The notes beneath the pieces were generated by a model. The model searched no databases. It saw only the letters and a program-made list of their open reading frames with translations, and had not been told where the DNA came from. The position numbers and the translations under genes are program-made. A stretch of DNA of 64,000 nucleotides, taken from NCBI RefSeq assembly GCF_902713615.1, contig NC_052158.1:86436822-86500821 (forward strand). The letters run 5' to 3'. Below are positions 2,952 through 38,879 of the stretch, piece by piece. The stretch's first letter is position 1. Every line of letters starts with the position of its first letter. Source of the DNA: Scyliorhinus canicula. Lineage: Eukaryota.

Positions 2952-3724
2952 CTTCTCTTGTCCTGGAGCTTCTGGAATTCTGTGGATACAAGCATAATAT
3001 CTGTTATTATCTTGCCTAAGATCTCGTGTGCTAGTCTGTCTGTCCTTTGGTGCCAATTACCCTTTATAATTGGTCACCATCTGTGACTCCCTCATTTTTT
3101 TTTTTAAACCCAATTTCAGGACCAGACATACATAAAAATACTGAAACAGTGCGAGCTGTCTCGCAGCCTGTGCGATTTGCCATCCAACTGTTTGAGGATG
3201 TAAATAACATGAGGGGAAGCAACCGAAGGGTTACCTTAAAACAAAACAAAAACTTTTGAAACAAAAGAGCCAAAATGAGGTACGTATGGGCCGCGGCAGG
3301 TAAGAATTGGATGGAATCCCAAGGTAGGGCGGATTGTGCTCTACCCGAGCTTAGCTGACCAGAGGGGGGTCCTCAGACAGGGCGGGGATAAGTGCCGTGT
3401 CTCCACTGCCTGAGTAACCGGCAAGAACGGGCAAGAATGTAGTCATCGTGGTGGGTTGCAGTAATGTCTCTACCTTCAAATCGGAAGAGCAGTTATGAAT
3501 TGGGTGCTGGCAAGTTCTCAGCGGTTTCGGCTGATAAGCATGCCGTCAAGTTCTCATAGGTTTCTGCAGACAAATTTGGCCTGGGGCTGTGTAAGGCTGT
3601 TTAAAATTCAAACAAAGAACATTTGACAAACACAAACAAACATGCAACGAATATCGTGCAGGTTCCATCAGAAAGAAGGATACTGTAAATCACATGTGGT
3701 TTGGGGTGTAACTACCATATGGAG

Positions 3725-5682
3725 TCAGTGCAGTGTGACCAATGAAGAGAGGAAGGAGGAGAGAAACAAAATGAATTGGCATTGCTGAGGTGTCCCTGCC
3801 ATGAAAAGTGGTGTGTAAGCGCTCACAGTTTGCATGGGGCAGCTGGGACCTTGTAGTTGCTGTGGGTGGGGTTCTCTTTCATATCTGGGGGCGGGTCTAG
3901 CTGGTGGTGGAGGTCTCCTGCAATCTCGGGCGAAGTTTCCTGGCTGCCCACAAGTGTAACATGACATGGGGGACATAAGGTGGAGCAGGCACTCTGGTGC
4001 ATTGTTCCCTTGGGTATTATTCCCTGAGTGGGGGGTTGGGGCTGTTGGTGTCGTTGCTGGTTCGGGGGGCATTGGTGGGCTGATTCCGTGGCTGTTTCAG
4101 GGGGGCTTGACAGTCTCGTGCGTAATGTCCTAATTGGCCGCAATTATAACACCCCTGGCATTTGGTCTGCTGTGGGCTGTTCCTTCCCTCATTTACCCAT
4201 GCGGGATTTTAATGTGTTTTAACTGGATGCATATCTGCATCTGCCTGCTCTTCATCGGGTTTCCTAAAATTGGTCTTGTGTACTGATTTCTCCCAAGCGC
4301 GGGACAATCTTTTTAAAACCCATTTCTCATTGTGGGCCTCATCTGAGGGGTCATAATTTGCACAAGCTCTCTGACCTGCCTCTGTGGCGTGAGAGATCAG
4401 GATTCGAGTCTATTTTGCCATGTTATCTGGGGACAAATGGGCGCGGGCTAATTCTCCAAAAACTGCCGTGAAAGTAATCCATAAGCGTCCAGCAAACACT
4501 GTGGGGTGTTCAGTTTTCTTCTGCCTGCATCTATTCAGGCCTGCTACTGGGTCTCTATTGTAACCGATCGCATCTAGGATCGCTGTGCGCATCTCTGCTA
4601 GGGTGCCTCCTCCTACATTCTGTGGGTTGGGAAGGGCTGCTACAACGGAAGGGTCTAGGCTCAAAACTGTGAGCTTCACTTGCTCTTTCTCATCCAGGCC
4701 ATACATGGTGACCTGCTGCTTAACTTTTGCAAAGAATTGGTGGGGGTCTGAAGTGGGGAGGAATGGTGTGATTTTCTCACACGCATCCCGTAATTGGGTT
4801 ACGGTTGCGGTGGGTGGTTATTGGATTCATGGGGGTGTGATCTATCTGCTCTGTGGGGGGTTGGGGTGCTCTTCTCTTCTGGGGCTTCTCCTGCGTACAT
4901 GCTCCATGTACATACTTATGCGTTGTTTCATTTAACTCTTGCCAATCGGGTCGTTATCATCATTTAATTGGGATCCAAATGTGCTTTGGAATCCATTCTG
5001 GACTGAAAGCAGAGATTGCAGTTCTGCAATCTGCTTCCGGCACTTTGCATGATTTACCGAGCTCTGCCTCTGTTCCGTGGTGGAAGCATGGAGTGTTCAT
5101 AGAGCTGCCTTTAAATCGCTGCACTGCTTCTGCAATGCCTCTACCTGCTGTTTCGTTTCTTGTCTTACCAGGACTGCACGTTGTGTGTCCTGGATAGGCC
5201 TGGTCATATTAGGTTTGGAAGCTGCTTAAGTGCGCCAGACAAGACTGGTGTGCCCTCTTGGCATCATCCAACTCTCTGTCTTTTGCTGCCAACCTCCCTT
5301 TTAACTCTCTGTTCTCCTTCTCTATGTTGCTTACATCGACTTTACTCATCCTATTTCTCTCATCTATCTCTTTACGGAGCGTCCTAACGACCTCCTCTGT
5401 GCCTCGCAATTGTGCCAGACAGGACACGATTGCCATCGGCTTGCGAGCTTTTCCCAAGCTCTTCCTGTGAATCTCTGTCAGGTTCTCCCACCAAGTATGT
5501 CCTATACTCCCGGGACCTGTTTCTTCATTTGCACAAAATTCGCTCTAAAGGGGCCATCCCTTCCCTTTGAGGTACTTCCTAATCTCATCTTCCCAAACGG
5601 GACACTGTCCTACTCTGCTGCTGGTCGCTGCTACCACGAATTCTTGCGGGTTCATAAGGCGTTCCATTGCCTTCATTGCCAT
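3725..5682 (-). pseudogene. gag: gag of element A (frameshifted)
   Basis: Begins MAMKAMERLMNP..QCPVWEDEIRKYLKGKGW; coiled-coil segment; capsid-like MYGLDEKEQVKL..PQNVGGGTL..RQKKTEHP; CCHC knuckle CYTCGQPGNFARDC near 3920-3962. Confidence 0.85.
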
Positions 5683-5978
5683 TTTTCCTATCTGAGTTCT
5701 CTTTAAATTCGGAACAGGGGGTAATAAAGCGGTGCTGCAAATACGGGTATGGCTTTCGCTAATTTCCAGAATACAAACTCCCGACAGTTTTTCGCAACAG
5801 AATCTATCAGTTTTACCTTATAGCCCTGTTAGTACGCATGCATTAACACACTTCCGAATTCTGGAGGATTGATCAGAACGGCTTGAACACTTGTGGTTAT
5901 TTCTGTTCTCAATTGGATTCTAATTCAAATTTTGGGTTCTCTCGGAGTTGAGGGGGGGGGGGGGGGGGCACTTCTAAG

Positions 5979-6006: not shown

Positions 6007-6879
6007 TGTTGCTAGGTGTTGTTTTTACTTAATTGCTCTGTTTAATAATCTTTGCTCTAGAGTTGCCACTTATATTTCTGATACCACCACGAGGTTCAAA
6101 GCCAAGTGCTGATCAATAACACAATACACCAGTTAGTAAGTTTCAAACCAAAACACATTTATTATACACACAGTCAATCACTACTCATGCATAAACTATA
6201 CTTATTAAGCTAACACTGCTACTGAAGGCTTATACTTAGCTTTCAAATGGCCCACCAGGTCAGAGGAACAATGGCCTTTGTCCGGTTATGAATCTGCTGG
6301 CTTCAAGCTGGTATGGAATAGTAGCTAGGAGCGTCTATCTCGTAGCGTGCGTTGACTGGAGACTTACTTGGTTGGTGCAACTGCTAGGCAGATCCCTCCT
6401 TGTTGAGAGTCACGGTCAAGAGTTCTTTGAGAGCTGCCAAGAGATCCTGCCAAGAGTGCGAACTGAACTTGGGGACTCTACTTTATAGCCCCCAGGGGTT
6501 TCGCGCTTTTGTGGGCGGACCCCGGACCTGGTCCTAATTAATTGGACCATGTCCCAATCGTTTCAATCGATTTCTCCAATACTGGAGCTGTTCCCTGATC
6601 GCTGGGCGGTTCCTATGTGTCCATTGGCCTTCTTTGTCCTGGCTCCCGCTGGCGCCGGGGAGTCTGTCTTGGTCCCAATCGCTTCAATGTATCTAATTGT
6701 TCCTGGGGATTGCTCATTAATATGCAGATGGCTATTGGTTTCGGTTCTGTCTGGGCTCTGCAAGTCTTAATACACAGGAAACCTTGCACCTGCTGTTTTC
6801 CTGTGCCTGGCAAATTTTCCCTGTATTCTTTGCGGGCCTACATTTTGGAATCGGGAAGTGGCCACCCCAGGTGGCTACA
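6007..6879 (-). repeat. 5' LTR of element A
   Basis: Direct repeat of 998-1870, followed on the minus strand by the PBS and gag. Confidence 0.93.
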
Positions 6880-7205
6880 AAGGTTACATGATGCGCTTTT
6901 GGAGGGTTCACCACCTTACCCTGCAGAAGCAACATCTCTGAATAAACCCTGCACTATATTTTCACAAACGTAAAGCATGGCATCTCTACTTCTTTTTCTC
7001 TTTGCGGCAACAACAAAAATATAACAATATGGTTAGTTAGGAATATTCCTCAAAGCTATGTTGTCAAATAACAAGATAACATAAGTGTGATAAAAGACTG
7101 TAGAAAGAATTGAGGAAGATTGATCAAAAATTCAAAATAGATTCTGGATCAAATGAAAGATAAAAGTTGTTGTATCATCCTTTCCTCATTACCTCTAATT
7201 ATTGA

Positions 7206-7324
7206 ACTGAGGAAAGAGCTGCGCTCCGAAAGCTAGTGATTCAAAACAAACCAGTTGGACTTTAACCTGGTGTTGTAAGACCTCTTACTGTGCCCACACC
7301 TGTCCAACGTCGGCATCTCCACAC
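7206..7324 (+). mobile_element. Penelope-like terminal-repeat fragment with minimal hammerhead ribozyme core
   Basis: CTGAGGA-A-GAGC-TGC-GCTC-C-GAAA-GCTA at 7207-7235; flanked by 11-bp TSD CTAATTATTGA (7195-7205, 7325-7335). Confidence 0.7.
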
Positions 7325-8170
7325 CTAATTATTGAGTCAGTGCAACATACTGATCAATAATGCAGGAGTCATAGCAATGCAATGGTGAGCTATTTTAAAG
7401 CGTAGGAAATCTGCTGCATGGATTAGGAAAGGGAGAAATTCACACAATTTCATTTAGACATTCCCCTCTCCACTTTGAACCATGGGGTTTTTTTGTGAAT
7501 CCTTAATATAGACTAGCAGATAGCGTCTTTGTGGCCAAAGGGCACTTTGGAAGAAAAATGTAACACTATAACCTATATACGGATAAAATCTGTGATTCTG
7601 TAGGTACAGAGACCCACTTACTGAAGGCGTAGAATAAACCCCATGCTGTTATTCAATGTATTAGATAACAACACATTATTTCATTAGGCATAAGAGCACA
7701 TAGGGTCCCCCAAAATGTCATTCTTGAAGTTGTTTATTTTTCACTGATTGTAAGATACATATAATTTTGCTACACAGGGACTTAACCTACTTCAGAGCTG
7801 CAAATGCTTCTGATCCTCTTTGGAAAAAACAAACTTCTAAATGACAATATGAGTGACTACTCTTGGTGCCCACACTAAGTTTTGAAACAGTGGGATACTG
7901 ACAAAAATGAAATAAAGTAACAGAATTATGTTGGGATCTGTTGAGGCTCACCCTACTACCATCCAGAATATTCACACCCTGTGAGCAACACCACTATTAT
8001 AAAATGAATGTAGCAACATCCCAGCATTGATAGAATCATGGCTTTTGAATGGTAACGACATCTCCCTCACTAAAGCTTCTGCATCTCTCTATAAATGTCT
8101 TCACTCGCCTTGTTGACGATGCAGTTCACTTCCTGACCTAAAGGAAAAGAAAAATTTGCATTTGTATAAA

Positions 8171-9786
8171 CCCCAGCAGCCCACAACTCACTCACACCCA
8201 CCATCACAGCTTCCAAAGTCAGATCGGTCTTCCTGAAAGTGAACCCTCGGAAGACGACGGGCCCGGACGGGATCCCTGGTCGTGCACACAGAGCCTGCAC
8301 GGACCAGCTGGCACAGGTGTTCGTGGACATCTTTAACCTGTCCCTACTCCACTCCGAGGTCCCCACCTGCTTCAAGAAGACCACCATCATACCGGTGCCA
8401 AAGAAGAACCAGGCAACGTGCCTCAATGACTACCGTCCGGTGGCCCTGACTTCAGTCCTAATGAAGTGCTTAGAGAGGTTGATCATGAAGCACATCACGT
8501 CCATACTCCCAGAACGCCTTGATCCATTGCAATTCGCATACTGTCGCAACCGGTCCACAGCAGATGCCACTTTCCTGGCCCTATACTCATCCCTCGAGCA
8601 TCTCGACAAGGACTCCTACATCAGACTCCTATTTATTGACTACAGCTCCGCCTTCAACACCATAATCCCAGCCAAGCTCATATCAAAGCTCCAAAACCTA
8701 GGACTTGGCTCCCCACTCTGCAACTGGATCCTCGATTTTCTGACCAACAGACCACAATCAGTAAGAATGAACAACAACACCTCCTCCACAATAGTCCTCG
8801 ATACCGTGGCCCCGCAAGGCTGTGTACTTAGCCCCCTACTCTACTCCCTGTACACACACGACTGCGTGGCAAAACTTGGTTCCAACTCCATCTACAAGTT
8901 TGCTGACGATACGACCATAGTGGGATCTCTAATAACGACGAGACAGAATACAGGAGGGAGATAGAGAACCTAGTGGAGTGGTGCAGCAACAATAATCTCT
9001 CCCTCAATGCCAGCAAAACTAAAGAGCTGGTCATTGACTTCAAGGAGCAAAGTACTGTACACACCTCTGTCAGCATCAACAGTGCCGAGGTGGAGATGGT
9101 TAGCAGTTTCAAATTCCTAGGGGTGCACATCTCCAAAAATCTGTCCTGGCCCACCCATGTCAACACTATCACCAAGAAAGCACAACAGCACCTATACTTC
9201 CTCAGGAAACTAAGGAAATTCGGCATGTCCACATTAATTCTTATCAATTTTTACAGATGCACCATAGAAAGCATCTTATCTGGCTGCATCACGGCCTGGG
9301 ATGGCAAATGCTCGGCCCAGGACCGCAAGAAACTTCAGAGAGTCGTGAACTCCGCCCAGTCCATCACATGACCCTGCCTCCCATCCATTGACTCCATCTA
9401 CACCTCCCGCTGCCTGGGGAAAGCAGGCAGCATAATCGAAGATCCCTCCCACCTGGCTTGCTCACTGTTCCAACTTCTTCTATTGGGCAGGAGATACAGA
9501 AGTCTGAGAACACGCACAAACAGACTCAAAAACAGCTTCTTCCCCGCTGTTACCAGACTCTTAAATGACCCAGATATGGACTGACCTCATTAACACTACA
9601 CCTTGTATGCTTGATCTGATGCTGGTGCTTATGTAGTTACACTGTATACCTTGTGTTGCCCTATTATGTATTTTCTTTTATTCCCTTTTCTTTCCATGTA
9701 CTTAATGCTCTGTTGAGCTGCTCGCAGAAAACTCCTTTTCACTGTACCTCGGGACACGTGACAATAAACAAATCCAATCCAATCCA
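8171..9786 (+). mobile_element. 5'-truncated Rex1/Babar-type LINE (RT, frameshifted)
   Basis: ORFs 8239-8964 and 8973-9371 with [50 protein letters not shown]; AATAAA and (AATCC)n tail. Confidence 0.9.
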
Positions 9787-11955: not shown

Positions 11956-12783
11956 AGGCAGGAGAGGAAAGTTGGAAAACATTCCAGAAGCAAAGACTGG
12001 ATGATTAAAAAATGATGACAGAAACTAATTTAATCTGTTTATTTTAATGGCTTTAATTACATTTCTGCTTGGTAGTGCTCCCCAACTCATTCCTTATCCT
12101 GTAAGTGCACAGGTGATATATTTCGGTCAACTACAAATTACTTAATGAATTTGCAACAACGATGTCAGCGTCATTGATCTCTCTTTCTAATTTATAGTTA
12201 CCAAATCATGCAATGACCAGCAGAGAGAGAATAAATTGAAGCACAGCAATGCCATCAACTCAACAGTATATGTTCACATAGGGCTTGCTCATAGCTCATA
12301 ATTTCATTTTGGAGGAAAACTATTGATCACTCAAGGTTTGCATTTTGATTAATGACAGCACTTAAAATCCAAAAGGTGATCACTGCTTTGTAATTGCTTC
12401 AAATCTGGTATTGAATTTGCACACAAACATTCAAACTGGTAAAAGGCCAGTTTAGATGCTTTTATAAAGTGCCCTTAATGTAGCAAAACCATTTCAAAGT
12501 ACTTCACAGGGAGCATAAGCCAGAGAAAAATGCACATCAGCCCAGTCGCGTTGTTAACTCTGGTTAGAGAAATTCCTGGAGGTCTGATCATATATCAGCA
12601 AATATTATTGCATTTACCTGTAATACCTGCAGTTGAGAGAACATTTGCCAATAGATTAATGTTGGGAAGTTCCAAAAACTGAGAATTTTGAGTACCTGAA
12701 AGTTGATTCAATCCTAACTTTTAAAAGGGATTGGATGTATTCATGAATGTGAAAAAAATTCAAAGGCCACGGTGAAAGAAGAG

Positions 12784-13544
12784 TGTAGTCATCTAAGATG
12801 GCCACCTGCAAAGGACCATGGGAATTATGGCCAACCCAGGACTCGGACAGATACAGAGCCGATATGTATCTGAAACACAAGTAACCAGGCCTGATCGAAA
12901 CCCCCGCTCGTTTGCATTTTAATGGTCCATTTTCCCAGGACAATAGAACTCAAATCAAGCAACCGGCACAGAGACAGACTGATTGGCACCATTCCCTTTA
13001 CTCAGAAAGCCCAACTGCCAATGACCGCTAAGGACCTGCGAGACACCAAGGCACTCACCTCTTTATTGGCCGAAATCGGACAGTGATCAGAGCCCTGTCA
13101 AACTGTTGGGTCCAAGGTAAAGGACCGCCCCAACGAGCGCAAAATCCCAGAGGGACAAAAGAGAGCACAGCCATGTGTTCTGTCTCTTTTGGATCCGGCC
13201 TGTGCCAGCCCAATTGCAGCAGGGACAGCCAGCCAGGTTCAAGACCAATGATCGCTACCTGATGGATGAGCAAAGCAGAGACAGAGCCACTTTCTTCGAA
13301 CCAGCCAAGTGAAATCCAGATAAAGGCCTTATCCATTTGCACAGTGCTGGTCACCCTGAAGTTAAGTATAGGTTATTGTAGCTGATAGGTGTAGTTTAAC
13401 TCATAGTAGACATTGTGGTTGCATGTTGAGATAACTCTTGTGTATGTGAATAAACCATCTTTTGAACTAACTAACTGGTTGTTTGGTCATTTGATTGATA
13501 TAAGGGAAGGCTTGTGGTTCACCAACATTATTAATAGAGCAACA
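12784..13544 (+). repeat. 5' LTR of element B
   Basis: Direct repeat of 21475-22237; AATAAA near 13449. Confidence 0.93.
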
Positions 13545-13548
13545 TTAT

Positions 13549-13566
13549 TGGCGACTCTGGTGGGAC
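13549..13566 (+). promoter_or_regulatory. Primer-binding site, tRNA-Arg(UCU)
   Basis: TGGCGACTCTGGTGGGAC is the reverse complement of GTCCCACCAGAGTCG-CCA, the 3' end of vertebrate tRNA-Arg(TCT) as I recall it. Confidence 0.85.
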
Positions 13567-13853
13567 TTGATTAGAAGTGACCTTATCACTCCAAGAGACC
13601 CCACAAACTTTGAATCCAATTGCGAGAAAGAGAAAGAAGCACAAGTCCCATATCGACCAAATAACCGAATTTTGGAAGTATGAACTAACCCCGCATGCGT
13701 ACCTAATAGGAAGGGTAAGGTAAACTTGTTAGAATTCTGTACAACTATCGAGGGGTTGTGAGTCAGAAAATAGCTTAAGCCATACCCATTGTTCAAATCG
13801 CCGCCTTATTCCCTTGTCCCAAATTAAAAGTAGAGAAAGAGATAAGAGAAGTA

Positions 13854-15592
13854 ATGGCCACTAAACAATGGAAAGATTGATGAATGCACGGGAACCCAAG
13901 GTCGCAGCGACCAACAGAGCAGAGCAATACCCCATATGGGAGGAAGAGTTAAGGAAATACTTAAAGGGGAAAGGATGGCTCCTTCGGTTGAATTTTCGCG
14001 CTAATGAGTCAGGTCCAGGAAAGATAGGACAGACTTGGTGGGAGAACCTAAGCGAGGTCCACAAGAAAAATGTAGGGAAAGTCAGAAAGACGATAGTGTC
14101 CTGGTTGGACAGTTGCAAGGCACAGAGGAGGTCGTGAAGATGCTCCGTAGGCAGTTAATTGAGAAGGAAGAAAAGAATGAGGGAAACAGTAACAAAAGTG
14201 AGAAAATAATTGAGCAACTCCGGGAACAGTTAGCAGCTAAGGATAAGGAAATAGCCGATGTAAAATGCGCACATCTATCTTGTCTAGTTCACATTAGAAG
14301 CTTCCAGACCCAGAACGATAAAGGCTACCAAGATACACAGTGTGCAGTCCTGCTAAGAGAGGAAACAGAACAACAGGTCGCCAAGCTAACTAGGAAATGC
14401 GCAGATTTAAAAGCAGCTTTGAGATCGCTCCACGGCTCCATTAAGGAACAGAGACAGAATACCGTTGACCATGGTAAATGCCGATAGAAGATAGAAAAGT
14501 TACAGTCATTACTCAGTGCAGAATGGCTTCAGGTACACTTTCGGGCAGGATTTAGACGAGGAAGATGCTCCCGATTGGCAAGAGTTAAACAAAAGCTCCC
14601 AAAGATACGTAGAGGACACGGGAAATCAAAATTGAGCCCCCCACGCCCCAAAAAGAAAAGCACCTGCAGCACTGACTGCACAGGCAGCACACACCCCCCT
14701 TACAATTCAATCCCCATGAATTCGGTTACCACACAACGCACGTCATCAGATCAAGAGGAGCCTGATATCATTTACACCACCCCACTATCCATAACCCAAT
14801 TAAGAGAGGCTTGCACGAAAATTGGTCCATTCCAGTCCACCGCAGACCCGCACAGCTTCTTTGAGGAGATGCGTCAACAGAAAGTTATGTATGGCCTAGA
14901 TTAGAGAGAGGAAGTAAAGCTAATAGTTATGAGCCTTAGCCAGTCTGTAGGGTCAGCTTTGCCAGAACCCCAAAATGTAGCAGGGGGAACCCTACAAGAC
15001 ATGAAAACAGCCATATTAGATGTCATTGGGTATAACAAAGGAGATCCAGTCAAGGGTTTAAATCACTGTAGGCAAAAGAAGGGGGAACATCCGACCACAT
15101 TTGCTGGTCTAGGGATTAATTTCATGGCAGTCTACGGACAATTGAACTGCGCACACCTAAATGAGGACACCACTAAATGGTCCCGCACCTCAGTCTCACA
15201 TGCCACAGACACAGGTCAAAAGGCTTGTGTAAACTACTACCCCACAGACCACAGACACAATGAAGTTTGGGCATTGAAACAATGTTCCAAAGCATGGGAA
15301 CAAACCCTAGACCAACAAACAGATCAGGACAAGATAGAAGCACCCAGTTAGGATTAGCCAGGACCCAGCATGGATAAATGAGGGTAGACACGAGGGACAG
15401 CACCCCAGAGCACAGGCACCATGAGGTTGTTAGAATTGTGGCCACATGGGACATTTACGCCCGCGATTGCCGACAAACCCCCCGAACCATCAACGATACC
15501 AACAACCGAACCCCCCACCCAGGAACATTGTTAGGCCCATGCATAATGTTCGCACCTGTTCCGACGACTTAGCATTTAATTCCCTAGATTGA
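13854..15592 (+). pseudogene. gag: gag of element B (frameshifted)
   Basis: ORF pieces 13868-14137, 14035-14487, 14575-14904, 14929-15351 align with element A gag; decayed knuckle C*NCGHMGH/ARDC near 15425-15470; ends in TGA-CGG. Confidence 0.85.
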
Positions 15593-18500
15593 CGGTGTTT
15601 GACTCCCCAACTTGGGTCTGTGACACACGCTGGGACAAATTAGGAAGACCAGTAGTTACAGGCACAGTCCAGATACACACAGTCGATTTTCTTTGGGACA
15701 AAGGAGGATCCCACACCACTTTAAACTCCTCCACCACGTTTCAACAGGACAAATGGCCCACCACAGACACCAACACCCTGAGTGGATTCAAGGGCACATA
15801 CAGCAAGGATATATCACAGCTCCCATACCATTCAGATAGGGATGATTAGAACCAAACACGCTGTTGTTTTAGTTGACTTACCCCAAACCACAGAGCACAT
15901 TTTAGGCATTGATTTTATGAGCTCCCATAACATTTCATTTGACCCAGTAAACAAATGTGTATCGCGAATGGCCAAAACAGCTAGGGCACCCGCTACGCTC
16001 ACAGTAGGGGATTATTAAAACAGGATTTGTTCAGTAGGGGACTATTGGTTTAATCCGCAAACAATTAGCGCAGACTAGACAATTAAAGAGGTCCTCATAA
16101 AACACAAAGCGTCCTGCGCACAACACAAAACACGACTGTGGGAAAATCCCAGGTGCAGTAAAGATTTCAGGTCCTGATCCAAAGCCGCAAAAGCAATACG
16201 GTTTCCCACAGCAAGCCGAGGGTGAGATTTCAATGGTTATTAATGGTTTGTTAGACCAAGGAGTTATACGACCTGTAGTGTCCACAAATAATGCCCCAAT
16301 TTGGCCCGTAAAAAAGCCCGATGGTTCATGGCGACTAACGATTGACTACCGAGAACTTAATAAGGTAACCCTGTTAGCAGCCCCCACTGTTGCCATGAGT
16401 CCAGAGACCATGCTCAAACAGGGAGTACAGGCAAAACATTTCACATTGCTGGACATCAGCAATGGCTTTTGGTCCATCCCGTTAGACAGGGCCTGCCAGT
16501 ATAAATTCGCATTTACGTTTCAAGGGCAGCAGGTCACGTGGACATGCCTCCCACAAGGATTCCATAACTCCCCTTCCATTTTCCACTGACAGTTGGCCAG
16601 AGGACTTTCTAAATTTTCCCGACCTGAATGCCTCATACAATATGTAGACGATCTGCTCTTGCAAACGGACACAAAAGAGGAACACCTAGAGCTCTTATCT
16701 GAATTACTAGGCCTACTGCGATCAATCGGACATCAGGTAAACCCCCAAAAGGCCCAGAATTTGAAGGAAAAGGTTCTTTATTTAGGCTATCATCACCCAC
16801 GGGAAGAGAGAAATTGAGCAAAAACAGATCGAGTCCATCGTTAAATTGCCCCAGCCCCAAAATGTCACTGCACTCCGGTCATTCCTAGGTTTGGTAGGAT
16901 ATTGCACAAATCATATAGATGGCTTTGCCACTAAAGCAGCCCCACTCTCAGAGCTCCTTAAAAAGAGCGCCCCATGGTTAATGGCTTCTGCAGTACACAG
17001 ACGCCATTGATGATTTAAAATGCGCTCTAGGCACAGCCCTGCTTTACAAGTTCCAGACCCAGGCTTGCCCTATACCATAGAAGTAGCAACCACCGACCGA
17101 ACCCTATCAGCAATACTCCTGCAAGAACAACACGATCACTTAGGACCCGTAGCCTTGCCTCAAGAGTATGAGACCCCGTACAGCAAGGATTCTCAGCCTG
17201 CAAACGGCACTTGCTTGCAGTACAGTACTTTGCGTACATCACAGGCCTCAACCTAGTAACGATCTTGACTGAGCACACCCCATGCAACTATTACTAGACG
17301 GTACATTAAAGGATGGTTCAGTCAGCCAAATCAGAGCAGCTCGCTGGACACTACTGTTACAAGGGACCCCACGAGTGCCAAATCATATGCAGGGACCCCA
17401 CATGAGTGCCAAATCATAGCAGCCCAACACCACGCAGGACCCTTTATCCCAAAATTACTACACCCATGAGCAGGCAATAAGACACAGGATTTCCAAACCA
17501 CAGGGAATGCTTTAAAAATGAGACGGTTCCTCCACAATCAAAAATGGAGTTAGAATTACTGGTTGTGAAATTTACGTGGAAAACACGCAGGGACGCCCAC
17601 TAGAAGAGATCTCTTTAAAATTGCCCGGCCACCTAGGTTCACAAGCAGCAGAACTCGCAGCCATAGCCTATGTAATTCAGCATCCCGACTCTTTTCCAAC
17701 TCCCACAGACATACACTCAGACAGCCTGTATGTGTGCAATAGTTTAACAGAATTTCTGCCCCTGTGGGAATCTCTTGGTTTTGTTTCAGCCGATGGAAAA
17801 CCCCTACCCTCTGCCCCGTTGTTAAAGGACATTCTCAAGAAAGCCTCAGACTGCACATACGGTATTATTAAAGTAAGAAGCCATCATTGCTCCTCCCCAC
17901 CTGGTAATGTAAAGGCAGAAGCCTTAGCCAAAGCAAGATCACGCCATGGTCACTTCTAGCAGCCACCCGAAAGCCAACCGATACAGGTTTCCCAGACCAA
18001 TATTGAGGATCTATCCCAAGCCCAAAAAGCAGACGACACCTTCAAACAGGTTTTAGACGGCAACTTCCCAGCCCCCTATGATAAATGGAAGGACGCACTG
18101 GCTGAACAGGATGACATAGTTTTAAAAAACGAAATTTATGTGGTCCCCACCCAGGACAGATACCAGCTCATTTACCAATTTCATAATGGACACTGACATC
18201 AGGGGACAGACAATACCATTGCCCATTTAAGACCATTGTGTTGGTGGCCTGATTTAAAAAGCAATGTAACCCATTATGTCGAGAATTGCCTTATCTGTGC
18301 TCAGAAACAATCCTGAACATTACTCAAAGAAAAGGGCAATTACGTCACACCCAACATGTGAATGGCGCTTGGACAAAATTTCCAAATCGATTACATTGGC
18401 CCCCTTGCCCCTTGCAGATATGGTTTCAAGTATGTGCTGGCTGTAATCAGCACCTTTACTAAATGGGTAAAAGCATTTCCCTCACGGACAAACACAGCAA

Positions 18501-19200
18501 AGGTCACTGCTGAGATTTTGACCCAACAGATATTCACACTCTGGGGTCTCCCCCACAGCATTGAGTCAGACCAAGGCTCCCAGTTCACCGGCAGAGTCAT
18601 GCAAAATGATTTAACAATTTTTGGGATCGGGCAGAAATTCCATATAGCATATCACCCCCAAACCAGCGGCATTGTTGAGAGAATGAATCGAACTTTAAAA
18701 GCGACCATTAGGAAGATGGTGCAACAGAACAATACCATGTGGGGCATGGTCTTCCCATTTGTTCTCATGTTTATTCGGAACACCCTTTCCAGTTCAACAG
18801 TTTTCACCCCCACGCTCTCATGACTGGATGGCCCATGAACGGTATTGAATATTTATTTGGCCTCGATTTGGCAAGCCCTACAGTAACCGTCCTCTCCCAC
18901 GAAAAAGCATCCAAAAGGTTACAGATGACATTAAAGTGGCACAACTCGCTGCAGCTGTCTGATTACGTTCTCGAAGGAAGCAGAGTAAAGAATGCTTTGA
19001 CAAAGCCATCCACCCCGTAGAGCACACAGTTGGTCAGCAAGTAATGGTTTCCCTTTACAATCCCAGTTCTTTCCTCTCCCCCAAACTTGCACGACCCTAC
19101 TTCATTTCAGATAAAGTGAGCCCCTCCGTGTACAAGATAATGTACCCCAACGGTAAAACTGGTTTGTTCCACATCAACCAACTCTAAGTCCATGGATCAT
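15593..19200 (+). pseudogene. pol: pro-pol of element B (protease, RT, tether, RNase H, integrase)
   Basis: FLWDKGGS (protease); QKQY..NNAPIWPVKKPDGSWRLTIDYRELNK, LDISNGFW, LPQGFHNSP, YVDDLL (RT); SQAAELAA..SDSLYV..KVRSH..GNVKAEALA (RNase H); FQIDYIGP, SDQG, VERMNRTLK (integrase DDE). Confidence 0.93.
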
Positions 19201-20740
19201 AATGTAGCCACTCCCACCACATCTCTCTGGCAATAAGAGATGATTACTCCCCGCCCATCAACAACCTAGTCCAACCCCTATGCCAACCCTCCCCCAGCCA
19301 TGCAGGCATTTATCCCTTGTCCATGCCCACAGACCCGAACTTGGCTCCACCCACAGGTACAGACTTTCACCTTGAACTTGACTCAGACGACAGCGAGAGC
19401 CTCATGGATTTGATTACTATCCCTGACCACTGGCGCGATCTCTCTGCCCCCAGTCACCCCAGCCCTCAGAACCACAACTTCGATATCTTTGACTCTCTAT
19501 ATGCCCTCCCCCAGCCACCGCCTGACCACAGTAACTTGCCCTCCACTCCCACCACCCCAACGCCTCACAACAAACAAGCCCCTCTTTGGCACCGCGACAA
19601 CTCTTGCAGACTAGTAAGGCACGGCGATTCGGATTATCCGACAGCCCACGCGGCCGAGGCACAGAAACAGCAGAAATTAGTCTGGCAATCGTGAGATGGT
19701 GGTGATTCAGATACTGACGCTCGTTTTGGTTAATGCTGTTACAACACTGTTTGGTACAGAACCCTGAGGTGTCCAGATGATGAGAAAGAGACACCGCCTA
19801 AGTATTAATGTGTCCTAGTTCTGATGGAGCCTGCCCGCCTTTTTCTTTTTTTTTCTACAACATGGTTTTAAGTCATGTCGCCCGACACACAGTTACTCTT
19901 CTGATTCGAGGGTAAGATACCCAATGTCAGTTAAAGGCACAATGTTGTGGGGAAACAGATCACTGTTCTCTCAGTCTTTATGACACATTTCCACACAACT
20001 ACAAACTCTTACCGTCCACCCAGGTAGGAAGTAACGGCACTGATCCCCACCCTACCCGAGGACTCCAAATGCATCCGGTCAGTTAAGCTCGGGTAGTGGA
20101 GTAACGGCACTATGCCCCGCCCTACCTGAGGATTCCACCCATTCTTATCCTGTAGCGGCCCACATGCACCTCATGTTCCCTTCACTTCATATGCTCTCGA
20201 ATTGTTCTCTACACTCTGCGTTGTATTTGGCAGGCCTTAGTTTCACCTTCTCAACTCTCCCTTTGGTTGTGGTATAAAGAATGCATTTTGCCACGGTTTG
20301 CACGCACATCCCTTCTTTCCTTTACCTTCCGCGACTCCCTGGTCGGTACCCACCTGCTATTTACACGTACGACAATTGGTTGTTACACACGCTGCTAAAC
20401 GCAAACTACCTCTGAACCCTGGGATGGAACTCTATAAAACTGGCAGCCCTGAAATCCGACTGGTTAAGATGAGCCTCAACCACCACTGGTTGCAAGTAAA
20501 GAAAAGACTGGTCGAAGAAATTGTCATACCACTCCCGCACCGACCACAAGCTGCGAGAGTTTCTGCACTTTAAAAATTTGCATTTCTTGTCTCTCAAAAT
20601 GGTATTTCAAAAAAAAATTTTTTAAATGAGGGAGTCACACATGGTGACAATCATAATGGGTAATTGGAGTAAGGACAGAAAGACTAATAAAACGAGATAT
20701 TAACCAAAGATAATAACAGATACTATGCTTGCATCCCCAG

Positions 20741-21111
20741 GATCACCTGGAAAACAGAAAACACAGGGTGAAGCAAGGACTGCTGACATGCGTTTGGATC
20801 ATTGCTGGAGTTCTGCAACTATGCACGCAACGGACCGTTATAACAAACCCCACACCAGCCCCGAACACTACCACACAACAGGCCACCACCAGCCCAGACA
20901 CTACACCACACAAAGACAGATATCGAAACCCCCACTTGGTGCGAAAGCATTGCCAAATGGAACCCCCTTTCATACAGAGTAGAGGCCCTTCTAGTAAGTG
21001 CAATAATCTGCAGTGTCATTCAGACACCGACTCCGTAAATGGCAAGCAAAAGCCTCCCGCTCCCCGACATATAAAGTCCGATTTCCCTTCTTTGGAATTC
21101 AACAAAATTAA
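20741..21111 (+). pseudogene. Small transmembrane-protein ORF of element B (two frameshifts)
   Basis: DHLENRKHRVKQGLLTCVWIIAGVLQLCTQRTVITNPTPAPNTTTQQATTSPDTTPH/KTDIETPTWCESIAKWNPLSYRVEALLVSAIICSVIQT/RLRKWQAKASRSPTYKVRFPFFGIQQN*; follows a splice acceptor at 20740. Confidence 0.75.
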
Positions 21112-21474
21112 ACTCATGTACCAATAGCGGCTAAAAATAAACCATGTACATCTTTAATTTTTGCTGCTGTTGTAAATTTTGTACTGTATATAAGTTCTTT
21201 GATATTCACCAGCAGCACGAGAGTAGCTCAGATAGTGTTAGCCAGAGATCCACTGTGTGGATAAATTAAATGTTTTATAGAGACCTGATTATAGTAACCG
21301 TTAGAGATGAATTGATTTATGGATGTTTTAATGGAATATTAGGTAAATGTCCCAAACCAGAAGATAGAGTAGAGTAGAACCTTGCCTTGACCAAAATTGA
21401 CCGAGCCACCAAGGATGAACAGGGATCGATAGTGTGATCCACCACGCTTTGCGTTCAGGATCAAAAGGACGGAA

Positions 21475-22237
21475 TGTAGCCATCTAAGATAGTCACCTGC
21501 AAAGGACCTTGGGAATTATGGCCAACCCAGGACTCAGATAGATACAGAGCTGATGTGTATCTGAGACACAGATAACCAGGCCTGATCAAAATCCCCGCTC
21601 GTTTGCATTTTAATGGCCCATTATCCAAGGACAATAGAACGCCAATCAAGCAATCAGCACAGCGACAGACTGATCGGCGCCACTTTTTTTACTCAGAAAG
21701 CCCAACTGCCAATGACCGCTAAGGACCTGCGAGACACCAAGGCACTCACCTCTTTATTGGCTGAAATCGAAGACAGTGATCAGAGCCCTGTCGAACTATT
21801 GAGTCCAAGGTTAAGGACCACTCCAAAGAGTGCAAAATCCCAGAGGGATAAAAGAGAGCACAGCCATGTGTTCTGTCTCTTTTGGATCCGGCCTGTGCCA
21901 ACCCAATTGCAGCAGGGACAGCCAGCCAGGTTCAAGACCAATGATCGCAACCTCACGGATGAGCCCAGCAGAGACAGAGCCATTTTCTTCAAACCAGCCA
22001 AGTGAAATCCAGATAAACGCCTTATCCATTTGCACAGTGCCGGTCACCCTGAAGTTAAGTATAGGTTATTGTAGCTGATAGGTGTAGCTTAACTTGAAGT
22101 AAACATTGTGTTTGCATGTTGAGATAACTCTTGTGTATGTAAATAAACCATCTTTTGAACTAACTAACTGGTTGTTTGGTAATTTGATCGATATAAGGGA
22201 AGGCTTGTGGTTCACCAACATTATTAATAGAGCAACA
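21475..22237 (+). repeat. 3' LTR of element B
   Basis: Direct repeat of 12784-13544, preceded by a purine-rich tract. Confidence 0.93.
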
Positions 22238-22659
22238 CAAGGAAGCAATACTAATTGGAATACTCCTTCAAAGATTTGACACAAACATGATGGGTTGAAT
22301 GGCTTCCATCTATTCCACCCAAAACTCGACTGACCATGGCAGAGGAAGATGACAAAGTTTGGTGATGCTGCGACTACATAGAGCACACTTCCCACACACA
22401 TAGTTGTTCTGCCTTTGACATCCAAGCCAGGGATGAATCATTTAGCTGCCTACGTCAAAGATGTTGAATAGCTCAGAAAAACAAGTCCTTTCTTTCAGGA
22501 ATGTGTGCGGGTATCCTGAAACAGCAAATTACATGCTGGGCTTACATTTTAGATGCAACCATGTCAGAAGATTCAGTGTTTAAACGTGTGGCCATGTTTC
22601 ATATCCAGGTTAATATTAAACACAGTGGACTAATGAGGAAAATACCTTTACTGCACAGC

Positions 22660-23581: not shown

Positions 23582-24373
23582 TGTTGCTCTTTTTAACTGG
23601 ATACAGATATGACAGTTATTAATGATGAGATTGCTTTTCAGAGTCGCCAGGTATCAAATGATACCCCCACAAGGTTTTACCGGATATCGATCAAAGACCA
23701 AACCAGTTAGTTAGTTCCAGTTCAATGATAGTTTATTTGCATTCAAGAATTACTTGGACATGCAACATAAAACACTACAAGCTAAATTACACCTAACACA
23801 CAACAACCTGTACTTAACTTAAGGCACCCGGCTTTATGCAGAGGAACAAGGCCTTTGTTCGGATCTTGAATGGCTGGGTCTGGAGAAGTGACTTCGTTCC
23901 TGCTGGGCTCATCCGTCTGGTAGCGATCGTTGGTCTTGAACTTGTCTTCTGGTCGTGATGCTAAACTTGGTTTTAGGCATAGGTCTGGGCCAAGAGAGAC
24001 CGAGCGCCGGGGCCAAGAGAGACTGAACACATGCCAGTGTCTCCCTTTATCCTTCCTGGGTTTTGCGCTCTTTTGGGCAGTCCTTAGCTTTGGACCCAAT
24101 AATTCAGCAGGCTTCAATTACTGCCTTCGATTTTGGCCAATAAAGGGGCGGGTGGCTTGATGGCGGGGCGTGTCCTGAACGGTCATTGACCTTAGCTTTT
24201 TGGGCTCCCTGAGCAAAGGTAGTGGCACCGATGAGTGTTTCTGTATCTGTTACCCGAGTACAGGTCTTTTGTTCTGGGGAAATGAGTCCTGGGTTGACCA
24301 TATTTCCCATGGACCTTTGCAGGTGGCCATATTTCCTGGGATCCTTTGTAAGTGGCCATCCCTGATGGCTACA
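23582..24373 (-). mobile_element. Solo LTR of a third member of the A/B family
   Basis: TGTTGCTC...GATGGCTACA ends; clear similarity to the element B LTR (GCCACCTGCAAAGG..CCATGGGAA, TTCAAGACCAA.GATCGC); perfect 4-bp TSD GTTA. Confidence 0.9.
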
Positions 24374-35027: not shown

Positions 35028-38000
35028 TGTGGTGATCCACTGTGTTAACTGTGTGCACCTGTATTAGGGGATGTACAGTAGGACCTACACTACAGGTTCG
35101 CCGGTAGCCCCTGCCGGCTAGCTCCGCCCACAAGGAGCCATATAAATAGGTATGACTCTTCCTGATCAGCCATTTCGCCAGCTGCAGTAGGAGGCCACGC
35201 ATCTGACTGTAATAAATCCACAGTTGTACCAATCTGAGTCTTTCGTGCAATTGATAGTGCATCAATTTATTACAGTCAGATTTTCCACATTAAGGACATC
35301 AGGATCAAACCCGATCGCCTGCAGCTGGATCCACACTCGCCAGACGCCAGAAAGGACTTTATTCACTGGCTGGCTTGCTTTGAGGCCTATATCAATGCTG
35401 CGACCCCCGCTCCGACGGAAGCTCAGAAGATCCAAGTGCTTTACTCCAGATTGAGCTCCAGCGAGTTCCCGCTAATCCAGGACGCCCCGAATTACGCAGA
35501 GGCTATGGCTCTCCTTAAAGAGAACTACGTTCAGAAGACGAACACACTCTTTGCTAAGCACGTTCTCGCCACTCGCGTACAACTACCTGGTGAGTCGATC
35601 GAAGACTTCTGGCGGGCTCTTATCCCACTCGTACGGGACTGGGACTGTCAGGCCGTCACGGCCATGGAACATTCCAATCTCCTCATGCGAGACACATTCG
35701 TGACGGGGATTGCATCGGACCCCATCCAACAATGACTGCTGGAAGGGGCCACGCTCAACCTAGTGGAGACAAAAGCTTTAGCGCTCTCCATGATGGTCGC
35801 ATCTCGCAACGTCCAATCCTACCACGCTCGCCGCGCGGCCCACCCCTCCTACTCCTCTTGGACCCCGCAAATGACCCCCCCGGCAGGGGCCACTCCTGCT
35901 CAATATGCCTGCGCCGTCCGCCACACCATGCACCCTGGGGGTCCCCGCTGTTACTTCTGCGGCCAGCGGAAGCACCCCCGCCAGCACTGCCCAGCCCATG
36001 CCGCCACTTAGTGGTAAGAAGTGCTACTTTGCGGCAGTGTGCCAGGCACACGCAGTCGCCGCTATCGCGCCCGAATTCACTCACTTCCCCCAGCCGATCG
36101 CACAATGGACGCCGCCATCCTCTGCTCCCGGGGCCACGTGCGACCAGTGGGCGCCGCCATCTTCTACCCCCAGGTCCACGTGCGGCCCATGGGCGCCACC
36201 ATCTTGCCACGCCCCCACAAAGTGCACTCCATGGGCACCGCCATTTTGCCCCGCGCCCGCAATGTGCACTCAGTGGACGCCGCCATCTTTCTCTGCCCCT
36301 ACAACGTGCGCTGCGTGGGCGCCGCCATCTTCTCCTCCACAGGTCCTCCGGATGCCGCCATCGCCACTATTTGGTCTTCCCCACGGGACTGGAACGCTGG
36401 ATCCGGGTCGCCGACGCTCCACATCTGAATCCTCGGACGACCACCCGCTGCTTGTCTCTATGACACTGGACCAGTTCCGTCCTCACAACCTGGCCACCGG
36501 GAAATCAACGGCCACGCGACCTCTTGCCTACTGGACTCCGGGAGCACCGAAAGCTTCATCCACCCGGACACGGTAAGGCGCTGCTCCCTCACGGTCCACC
36601 CCGCCAACCAACGTATCTCCCTGGCCTCCGGATCACACTCTGTCCCGATCCGAGGGTTCTGTGTGGTCAATCTCACTATCCAAGGCATGGAATTCAGCAG
36701 TTTTCGCCTCTACGTTCTCCCCAACCTCTGTGCTGCACTATTGCTGGGTCTAGATTTTCAGTGTAATCTCCAGAGTCTCACCCTCAAATTTGGTGGGCCC
36801 CTACCCCCACCAACCGTTTGCGGCCTCACGACCCTCAAGGTTGGCCCCCCTACTTCTTTGCCAATCTAACTGCGGACTGCAATCCCGTTGCCACCAGGAG
36901 CAGACGGTACAGCCCCAGAGCAAGGCCTTCATCAGGTCCGAAGTCCGGCGGCTGTTTCAGGTGGTTATAATCGAGGCCAGCAATAGCCCCTGGAGAGCCC
37001 AAGTGGTAGTGGTTAAAACTGGGGAGGAACACAGGATGGTCGTGAACTACAGCCAGACCATCAATCAGTACACGCAGCTCAGCGCATACCCCCTCCCTCG
37101 CATATCTGATATGGTCAATCAGATTGCACAGTACCGGGTCTTCTCAACGATCGACTTTAAATCCGCCTACCACCAGCTCCGCATCCGTAAATCGGACCGT
37201 CCATACACTGCCTTCGAGGCGGACGGTCGCCAGCGCACAAGTAGACCAACTCCGGGCCCTGCATGACAGCCTTTGTCACCCGTGGGGTCACTCGATTATA
37301 CCACCTCGTCAAAGCCTGCAATCTGCCCTACTGCATCGAGGAAGTACGGACAGTCACCAGAGACTGCCAGGTCTGTGCGGAGTGCAAGCCGCACTTCTAC
37401 CGGCCGGACCGTGCATGCCTGGTGAAAGCCTCCCGCCCTTTTGAATGCCTCAGCTTGGATTTCAAAGGGCCCCTCCCCTCCACTGACCGCAACACATATA
37501 TCCTCAGTGTGGTCGATGAATTCTCCAGGTTCCCCTTTGCTATCCCATGCCCCGATATGACGTCCGCCACCATCATCAAGGCCCTCAACTCCAGCTTCGC
37601 TCTGTTCGGTTTCCCCAACTACATCCACAGCGACTGGGGATCCTCATTCATGAGCGATGAGCTGCGTCAGTTCCTGCTCAGCAAGGATATCGCCTCCAGC
37701 AGAATGATCAGCTACAACCCCCGGGGAAACGGGCAGGTAGAGAGGAGAACGGGACGGTTTGGAGGGCCGTCCAGCTGGCCCTACGGTCCAGAAACCTCCC
37801 AGCCGCTTGCTGGCAGCAGGTCCTCCCGGATGCACTGCACTCCATCCAGTCTCTACTGTGCACCACCACAAATAACACACCATGAAAGTGTTTTACCTTC
37901 CCTAGGAAGTCCACATCCGGGGTGTCGCTCCCGACTTGGCTGGCAGCTCCAGGACCGGTTCTTCTACGTAGGCATGTACGACTCCACAAGTCGGACCCCT

Positions 38001-38707
38001 TGGTGGACATGGTACGCCTACTCCACACCAACCCCCAGTATGCCTATGTGGAGTTCCCTGACGGCCGCCAGGATAGGGTCTCACTCAGGGACCTGGCTCC
38101 CTCAGGTTCCACTCACACACTTCCCCACCCACGCGCCACCCTCCCCTCCCCCGGCACTCCCAGCATTAGCCCCACCAGGTCCATCCCTCCTTCCCCTGCC
38201 CACGCTACAGGACGAGGAAGACTTCAGCACGCTCCCAGAGTCATCCAACTACTGGCCAACACCAACACCGCCAGCACCGACGTCGCAGACGCCAGCACCG
38301 ACTTCGCCACCGCCGCTACGTCACTCCCAGTGAACCGTCAAACCACCGGACATGCTTAACCTCTGACGGGCACTAGATGGACACATTTTCTTTCTCCCCT
38401 CCCCTCTGTAAATTACTCTGGTATAGTTCCACGCCACCCCCGCCGGACTCATTTTTAACAGGGCGTGAATGTGCTGATCCACTGTGTTAACTGTGTGCAC
38501 CTGTATTAGGGGATGTACAGTAGGACCCAACACTACAGGTTCGCCGGTAGCTCCTGCCAGCTAGCACCGCCCACAAGGAGCCGTATAAATAGGCATGACT
38601 CCTCCTGATCAGCCATTCTGCCAGCTGCAGTAGGAGGCCACGCATTTGACTGTAATAAAGCCACAGTTGTACCAATCGGAGTCTTTCGTGCAATTGATAG
38701 TGCATCA
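35028..38707 (+). mobile_element. Ty3/Gypsy (Mag-like) LTR retrotransposon, internally deleted
   Basis: LTRs 35028-35264 and 38470-38707; perfect 5-bp TSD AACCT; gag with Cys/His knuckles; protease LDSGSTES; RT start (SNSPWRAQV..IDFKSAYHQ) joined directly to integrase (H..LCH..CQVC, LDFKGP, HSDWG). Confidence 0.93.
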
Positions 38708-38879
38708 AACCTCTTAAAAACACATTTGCATTTGACGTTTCCAGAGGAAACCAATGCGGCATGAGTTTTCATTTAAAAATGTTAAAATGCAGATACTCCA
38801 GTTATTTTTAGAAATATGTGAAATGCCCACTCTAACAAATTTATTATGAGGAGTGTGATTCCTAACGAAAATCAAATGT

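Follow-up and report, generated by a model that had tools for sequence, protein, structure and literature searches.

The copying of endogenous retroviruses (ERVs) without env is assumed to be confined to germ cells, with no requirement at the cell surface, and in superspreaders such as IAP, MusD and ERV-L the loss of env accompanies very high copy number; to our knowledge, none of these three keeps a dedicated gene for a surface protein. Foamy viruses bud only when Env is present, and foamy genomes deficient in Env retrotranspose inside the cell (PMC3185757). In Drosophila, the sORF2 protein co-localises with capsids at contacts between soma and oocyte (bioRxiv 2025.03.14.642691). The FAST fusogens are proteins of 95–198 aa with one membrane anchor and a membrane-proximal basic cluster, and they are described as unglycosylated and lacking a signal peptide (PMC3952855). 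In the small-spotted catshark, an element of the foamy clade, ERV-Spuma.0-Sca, has been reported (Jing et al. 2023, PMC10699275), with a length of 9,220 nt, LTRs of 866–869 nt and 1,487 nt between the end of pol and the 3′ LTR. Its positions 6989–8314 are labelled 'env CDS' without an ORF row; the part of that account available to us gives an env domain for the hagfish element only and describes no small membrane gene in the catshark element. Here, we find that the env-less, high-copy foamy-like ERV of the catshark very probably has a third gene, which would be expressed from a spliced 3′ transcript, would encode a type I surface glycoprotein of ~115 aa and was under selection while env decayed.

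The window, a stretch of 64,000 nt of Scyliorhinus canicula DNA (NC_052158.1), holds two related LTR elements, B (12784–22237, + strand) and A (6879–998, − strand). Element B is organised as gag, pro-pol, a 1-kb spacer and a small ORF, with the Pfam domains RVT_1, RNase_H and rve in its pol. Element A comprises gag, a spacer and a small ORF with a SINE inside it, and pol is entirely absent. The features of both elements are:

12784–13544 (+): element B 5′ LTR, TG...CA, 761 nt
13549–13566 (+): element B primer-binding-site-like sequence after the 5′ LTR, similar in other copies
13850–15460 (+): element B gag, broken, with a C-terminal Cys-His box
15600–19767 (+): element B pro-pol, broken, encoding protease, RT, tether, RNase H, integrase and an acidic Pro-rich tail
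19765–19860 (+): element B decayed env 5′ stump directly 3′ of the pol stop, with DNA similarity to the env start of locus L179
20016–20165 (+): element B conserved non-coding block, common to all subfamilies examined (cross-group identity ~0.5–0.8)
20613–20740 (+): element B conserved block with a splice acceptor at its end (AG 20739–20740)
20768–21111 (+): element B small membrane-protein gene, broken
21455–21474 (+): element B polypurine tract
21475–22237 (+): element B 3′ LTR
6007–6879 (−): element A 5′ LTR, 873 nt
4080–5700 (−): element A gag, broken
3680–4090 (−): element A zinc-knuckle module (410 nt; Pfam zf-CCHC) replacing pro-pol
2980–3100 (−): element A conserved block and splice acceptor (AG 2981–2980)
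2256–2951 (−): element A small membrane-protein gene, broken, with a SINE at ~2594–2948
998–1870 (−): element A 3′ LTR

The LTRs of element A differ by 5.1% (6879–6007 vs 1870–998) and those of element B by 7.4% (12784–13544 vs 21475–22237), although B may have arisen by recombination between two insertions, which would make its LTR divergence an unreliable measure of age. The flanks of element B (12778–12783 vs 22238–22243) show no matching target-site duplication, and element A has one of 4 bp with one mismatch. Elsewhere in the window, a segment at 23828–23947 (−) is 71–72% similar to the element B LTR on the opposite strand and is probably a related solo LTR, a non-LTR-type reverse transcriptase fragment lies at 8170–9371, and a third, unrelated LTR element (35084–38708) has an integrase core (Pfam rve; 32% to the family described here).

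Analysis of pol placed the carrier lineage close to foamy viruses. The best PDB match of its RT is foamy Pol (E 3e-35, vs 5e-18 for MLV and 1e-16 for Ty3), and the nearest named Pol proteins, which are 44–56% identical and include the tether and RNase H, come from frog, coelacanth, turtle and ostrich. In an RT tree that took in no reference foamy sequence, nine shark sequences form one clade (support 100/99) within a group (89/93) that includes frog and coelacanth sequences, and the carrier RT groups with vertebrate retrovirus-like sequences, apart from those of invertebrates. Of 14 loci examined, 7 have target-site duplications of 4 bp and the others lack a readable end. Gag carries a Cys-His box (Pfam zf-CCHC, E 1.4e-6 in another copy), and the carrier is therefore foamy-like, not a foamy virus proper. 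The first-branching fish sequences of the tree, which may be lokiretroviruses, form a separate clade. Lokiretroviruses have an env related to the Mononegavirales F protein and an RT that is sister to all retroviruses (PMC7947760); the env of the shark lineage's sister loci matches PF03408 instead. With an LTR of 873 nt and ~1,510 nt from the end of pol to the 3′ LTR, subfamily A comes near the published dimensions of ERV-Spuma.0-Sca, which is probably the same family as the window lineage and whose 'env CDS' spans the corresponding interval; a motif look-up covering up to 400 characters per supplement entry gave no match.

In some copies, pol frames longer than 1,300 codons are open, which indicates that the lineage is in part young. 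There are also pol-less derivatives, which keep gag and the small gene. The 410-nt zinc-knuckle module is found in pol-less A, B and C copies with 85–91% identity across loci (L066, L068, L071, L077, L103, L105, L107, L110, L124, L125 and L152), which indicates an amplified gag-plus-small-gene derivative and module swapping among these three subfamilies. Nine pol-tail matches cluster on the small contig C31 (9.5–11.4 Mb). The end (residues ~1190–1331) of the closest named Pol relative, a Pyxicephalus adspersus protein (P0004), combines a signal-like stretch with a weak Ig domain (Pfam E 0.012, under the cut-off), and represents either a fused gene model or an Ig gene captured in a related frog element.

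An earlier reading of the window from sequence alone had described the family as env-less, which proved correct for nearly all copies and incorrect for the lineage as a whole, since five loci (C11 near 93.31 Mb, C7 145.41 Mb, C3 138.24 Mb, C24 27.26 Mb and C1 166.95 Mb) have an env or the sequence downstream of it. Among 60 long loci, 40 have both the pol end and the small ORF, and none of these 40 carries an env between them; the gap is 737–2,093 nt and its longest stop-free frame 72–254 codons. Likewise, env is absent from all eight loci hand-picked from 150 integrase matches, of which six have full small-ORF matches, one a partial match and one is interrupted before the ORF, and no env fragment was found among 254 candidates in a protein collection. 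A foamy env profile gave weak matches at four loci, a lower bound given the stricter first look, and at one of them, L179 (C11 near 93.31 Mb), an env scoring above the PF03408 cut-off in two frames comes after the lineage's pol tail. The five loci with the L179-type env or its downstream region compare with ~5,500 small-ORF candidates. The other weak matches are at C20:62.04 Mb, C7:162.10 Mb and C9:91.83 Mb, and there are a few more distant env matches. Several frames follow the env at L179/L180, one of them Cys-rich and one with a hydrophobic helix, and none belongs to a Pfam family; foamy accessory families were not detected in five post-env frames of the env-bearing locus.

Env-less copies also retain a trace of env that the sequence-only reading had passed over, as it had the absence of pol from element A and the signal-peptide-like character of the small protein's N-terminus. 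In element B, the sequence directly behind the pol stop resembles the beginning of the L179 env (z 17.6 relative to shuffled sequence). Homology to the env start was seen over the first 90 nt in 7 of 8 spacers tested from env-less copies (z 11–19) and extends over ~200 nt in subfamily E (z 6.7–6.9). This means that env was deleted and that the stump is distinct from the small ORF. The stump frame (window 19777–20070) is open for 50–110 codons in three B/E copies, but meets a stop within three codons in A, C, F and G.

A lineage that once had an env, with a small type I protein encoded behind an env-like acceptor, could also be read as having a collapsed env, in which an internal deletion fused the signal peptide to the membrane anchor and tail. 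This reading is largely refuted and we consider it very improbable, as env's own start is still present, apart from the small ORF, directly behind pol. The small ORF shows no similarity to the L179 env or to the ~1.85 kb of unique sequence examined after it, short of the LTR, and the best match of the 52 open small ORFs described below to the env-bearing locus (E 0.028) covers 15 residues within an inserted repeat. In addition, the terminal helix of the L179 env is a different one and has almost no tail behind it, and the small protein has no similarity to the ends of env, no furin site, no fusion peptide and no Pfam env match. Thus, relatives do carry an env, one half of what the sequence-only reading had named as refuting its interpretation, but the small ORF is very probably not what remains of it.

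The small ORF is a real, conserved and selected gene, the last before the 3′ LTR. As the earlier reading had proposed, homologous ORFs occupy this position in A and B, with products 38–43% identical, and the motifs listed for both are present in three-frame translations. The window copies are indeed broken by a SINE and frameshifts: in B, the start codon is lost and frameshifts occur near 20910 and 21027, position 20741 being the first base 3′ of the splice acceptor rather than a start codon, and in A there are breaks near 2560, 2530, 2430 and 2385 in addition to the SINE. Two further kinds of candidate gene were rejected, in-frame extensions on the upstream side and a frame overlapping the ORF in B, as they start upstream of the acceptor and A and B do not share the frame. 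DNA searches of the genome returned 899 (B query) and 1,119 (A query) candidates, with 40 scored each, and protein searches returned 5,534–5,655 (150 scored each); all of these are first-look candidates rather than verified copy numbers. Among 179 loci, 52 distinct ORFs of 105–128 aa are naturally unbroken, so the frame needed no reconstruction; the loci were chosen as best matches and many overlap, so this open fraction is not a genome-wide rate. Besides A, B, C and E, subfamilies D, F, G and H were also seen.

Selection was assessed by pairwise comparison of 48 open copies (8 from A, 11 from B, 23 from C and 6 from E) after removal of the four of the 52 frames with shifted ends. Between these four subfamilies, net dN/dS is 0.24–0.41 for the whole ORF and 0.16–0.31 for the membrane-tail part (from the Trp-Cys motif through the tail), with dS of 0.4–2.1 and bootstrap upper bounds of 0.42–0.76, and differences rank codon position 3 > 1 > 2 in all six comparisons. 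For reference, integrase dN/dS between subfamilies is 0.05–0.11 (five pairs with more than 140 codons each and a defined value) and that of the env stump 0.53–0.79, on 24–56 codons only. Within-subfamily values for the small ORF (0.19–0.77) were set aside because the copies were chosen as best, open matches. Individual copies decay while selection is visible between replicating subfamilies, and at least six subfamilies kept the gene under selection during the decay of env.

A 120-nt block directly 5′ of the small ORF is 80–85% identical between A and B, compared with ~66–74% for gag-pol, and can be aligned in six subfamilies. It presents, in order, a branch-point-like motif, pyrimidines, an AG, a purine-rich run and the start codon, which makes a spliced viral mRNA for the small ORF likely. 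Five annotated Scyliorhinus protein models (P0003, P0124, P0125, P0126 and P0128), which are themselves predictions, join the element at or beside this AG; the P0125 junction was checked on genomic DNA and the other four were read from translations against family copies. P0124 is an S. torazame HEPACAM2-like isoform X2 in which Ig domains are joined to the viral membrane helix and tail, and P0128 and P0129 are UGT8 isoforms, host gene models that end in a viral exon. RNA reads from four runs gave sense-biased, low depth over the small ORF in X20 (~4–8, vs 0–4 over pol), a difference confounded by oligo-dT bias and read-through, and the acceptor joint was not among the 15 splice joints listed of 47. 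There was no clear case of a retrocopied spliced form, with blocks beginning near the acceptor at 3 of 48 B and 4 of 29 A loci. Non-coding blocks at 20016–20165, 20338–20370 and 20613–20740 are kept across subfamilies, and RNA reads of other families share some of them. These conserved blocks might serve in export or packaging or as a promoter; an Rfam scan of 19700–21500 found no family at gathering score and one chance match (E 0.2).

Low-level sense transcription of the region and its exonisation in host gene models, together with the past existence of an env-bearing relative, would fit a protein that blocked that relative's receptor or entry, or benefited the host, independently of the element's own copying. 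We regard this as improbable, given that selection lies between replicating subfamilies as single copies decay and that no single fixed domesticated locus was seen, the P0125 and P0127 models representing multi-copy subfamilies.

The product of the small gene, with subfamily means of 114–118 aa, is predicted to be a type I surface glycoprotein with a signal-like N-terminus. From the N-terminus, it consists of a hydrophobic segment, a stalk, a Trp-Cys motif, an aromatic run, a membrane helix, basic residues and a tail. In all four subfamilies, an 11-residue hydrophobic window (hydropathy 2.2–2.9) starts at residue 4–6; a low-confidence structure model has a helix at residues 3–20, and a crude cleavage-site motif is present in 39 of the 48 open copies, from which we infer that the segment is cleaved as a signal peptide. 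If it were left uncleaved, the protein would have two spans, yet the stalk would still be outside and the tail inside. The stalk (30–40 aa) is 47–58% Ser, Thr or Pro, and all but one of the 48 copies have at least one N-sequon and would thus be glycosylated. The Trp-Cys motif, with the single ectodomain Cys, is found in 46/48, and a second Cys lies near the end of the helix. The helix itself (19-residue window, hydropathy 2.1–2.3) contains a Glu in 47/48 copies and is followed within 15 positions by 5.3–6.8 basic residues (subfamily means). Conserved Tyr, Pro and Phe are present in the tail, and a YxxPhi motif is absent from all 48 tails. Hydrophobic moments, calculated with no control, are 0.35–0.47 before the helix and 0.26–0.44 in the tail.

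The sequence-only reading had suggested a FAST-like fusogen, meaning that the small protein itself merges adjacent plasma membranes as FAST proteins do and as has been proposed for sORF2. Its size, its membrane anchor (with the N-terminal hydrophobic segment in addition), a juxtamembrane basic cluster above the FAST threshold of 3 Lys/Arg in 15 residues and the Cys at the helix end fit this idea, as does the aromatic membrane-proximal segment with its hydrophobic moment. However, sequence predictions contradict it where FAST proteins are unsignalled and unglycosylated: the signal-like segment is universal here and sequons are nearly so. The ectodomain of a FAST protein is acylated or forms a cystine loop, whereas the shark protein has one ectodomain Cys, no dicysteine and an MG (myristoylation) start in 0/48 copies. 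A glycosylated stalk rich in Ser, Thr and Pro would also be expected to hinder membrane apposition. With three defining features failing and no match in sequence or fold, membership of the FAST family is not sustained, and a FAST-type fusogen is unlikely.

Comparisons with known proteins likewise linked the small gene to nothing described. A full HMMER search of 1.84 billion representatives returned five matches, all Scyliorhinus gene models, and so no homolog outside this genus, and a word-based search with 12 open copies gave one match among 595 candidates. Every match in the ESM Atlas was under 0.9, the best E-value of a PDB profile search was 0.67, the best Pfam family was TMEM156 (E 0.003, below the cut-off), and a single-sequence fold (pLDDT 63, pTM 0.33) had no match at E 0.001 in a search of viral folds. 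FAST proteins are too divergent for sequence searches to link, so the absent match is weak evidence against a fusogen. The gene is also undescribed in the literature searches made, the coverage of which ended short of subscription journals and bioRxiv supplements (which could list sORF2-like proteins).

Selection in an env-less lineage suggests that the protein raises the number of germline insertions. We tentatively favour a role in cell contact or capsid tethering that would allow passage from cell to cell independently of Env, in view of the comparable purpose of sORF2 and of the Env dependence of foamy capsids. Lacking a membrane-targeting signal, foamy-type capsids cannot bud without Env, and an env-less copy would thus be confined to its own cell. 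The small protein would reach the plasma membrane, where its conserved basic and Tyr/Pro/Phe tail could gather capsids, presumably by binding Gag. Its short, glycosylated and possibly disulfide-linked ectodomain would then hold the neighbouring cell, and capsids might pass at close contacts such as those between gonadal soma and germ cells. Follicle-cell processes in sharks are a possible route, on which a literature search returned no paper. Such a factor would serve a purpose like that of sORF2 with a different build, and need not be a fusogen. Purifying selection between env-less subfamilies, the excess of small-ORF candidates over env loci, the pairing of gag with the small gene in pol-less derivatives and the conserved basic, Glu and Cys residues speak for it. 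Several points weigh against transfer. Pure intracellular retrotransposition explains the copy number without it, retention of the small gene in pol-less copies may only reflect closeness to 3′ cis signals, and there is no homolog or fold from which to borrow a function. Moreover, the Gag Cys-His box, unlike foamy Gag, means that foamy budding rules may not carry over.

The position of the env-bearing relative also bears on transfer. In an unrooted pol-tail tree (54 of 68 loci yielded the region), the env-bearing copy is intermediate, with B/E on one side and A/C/F/G on the other, a position compatible with a small gene that was once an accessory alongside Env and served a different function. 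Its pol tail is 70–82% identical to that of many copies, and at least 17 of 150 have the small ORF close behind, against 0.004 expected by chance; in the subfamily closest to it by pol tail, the ORF lies ~850 nt after pol. This placement fits an accessory gene older than the loss of env, or recombination at the stump. The far 3′ sequence of the env-bearing copy reaches z 3.3–4.2 against 4 of 20 spacers and ~0 in B and E, with protein scores at the level of shuffles.

A 3′ accessory gene kept after env loss could act as a modulator of host factors. Its membrane Glu and Cys would pair with a host membrane protein, which might be a restriction factor, an innate sensor, or an immune or growth-factor receptor, such that cells making new copies are protected or favoured. 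The combination of a charged membrane-helix residue and an ectodomain Cys is known from immune adaptors and from small viral receptor binders (Vpu and E5), and the last place before the 3′ LTR, well downstream of the env stump, is where foamy viruses and fish foamy-like ERVs have their accessory genes. The proximity of the ORF to pol in the subfamily nearest the env-bearing copy agrees with this, but the ORF was not found within the ~1.85 kb examined after env in that copy, the tails have no YxxPhi motif, and restriction factors acting at release or entry should matter little to a purely intracellular element. Modulation of a host factor is held with less than even confidence and is nearly as likely as the contact or tether role, which remains our preferred, if provisional, reading. 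Either outcome would be informative: the one would show that a vertebrate retrovirus can pass between cells without Env, the other that retrotransposition in the germline is limited by a host membrane factor. The same genome still contains env-bearing relatives with which the env-less copies can be compared.

Compared with foamy viruses and the foamy-like ERVs of fish and amphibians (PMC5512871, PMC5210030 and PMC3185757), the shark lineage is alike in its foamy-type RT, in a PF03408 env confined to rare sister loci and in having a 3′ accessory region. It differs in its Gag, as foamy and teleost foamy-like Gag are reported without the Cys-His box that the shark Gag has (PMC3185757 and PMC5210030), and in encoding a predicted membrane glycoprotein where foamy viruses encode Tas/Bet, with env lost in nearly all copies. 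Our analysis suggests that the annotated 'env' of the catshark foamy-like ERV is not an env. The sORF2 gene of the Drosophila MDG1 group is comparable in that an env-less LTR element encodes a small, selected membrane protein with a single anchor and a basic patch. sORF2, however, belongs to Metaviridae, lies upstream of gag, is unspliced and encodes ~70 aa that are often myristoylated, whereas the shark gene is Retroviridae-like, 3′ and behind an acceptor, with a signal-like N-terminus and sequons; the word 'shark' occurs zero times in the preprint (bioRxiv 10.1101/2025.03.14.642691). It is conceivable, though we would not put it higher, that a vertebrate retrovirus lineage gave up Env, moved from soma to germline by means of a tiny unrelated surface glycoprotein and thereby became a family of several thousand copies. 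On that reading, which we hold equally loosely, the shark gene would have converged on the role of insect sORF2 with a protein of new architecture.
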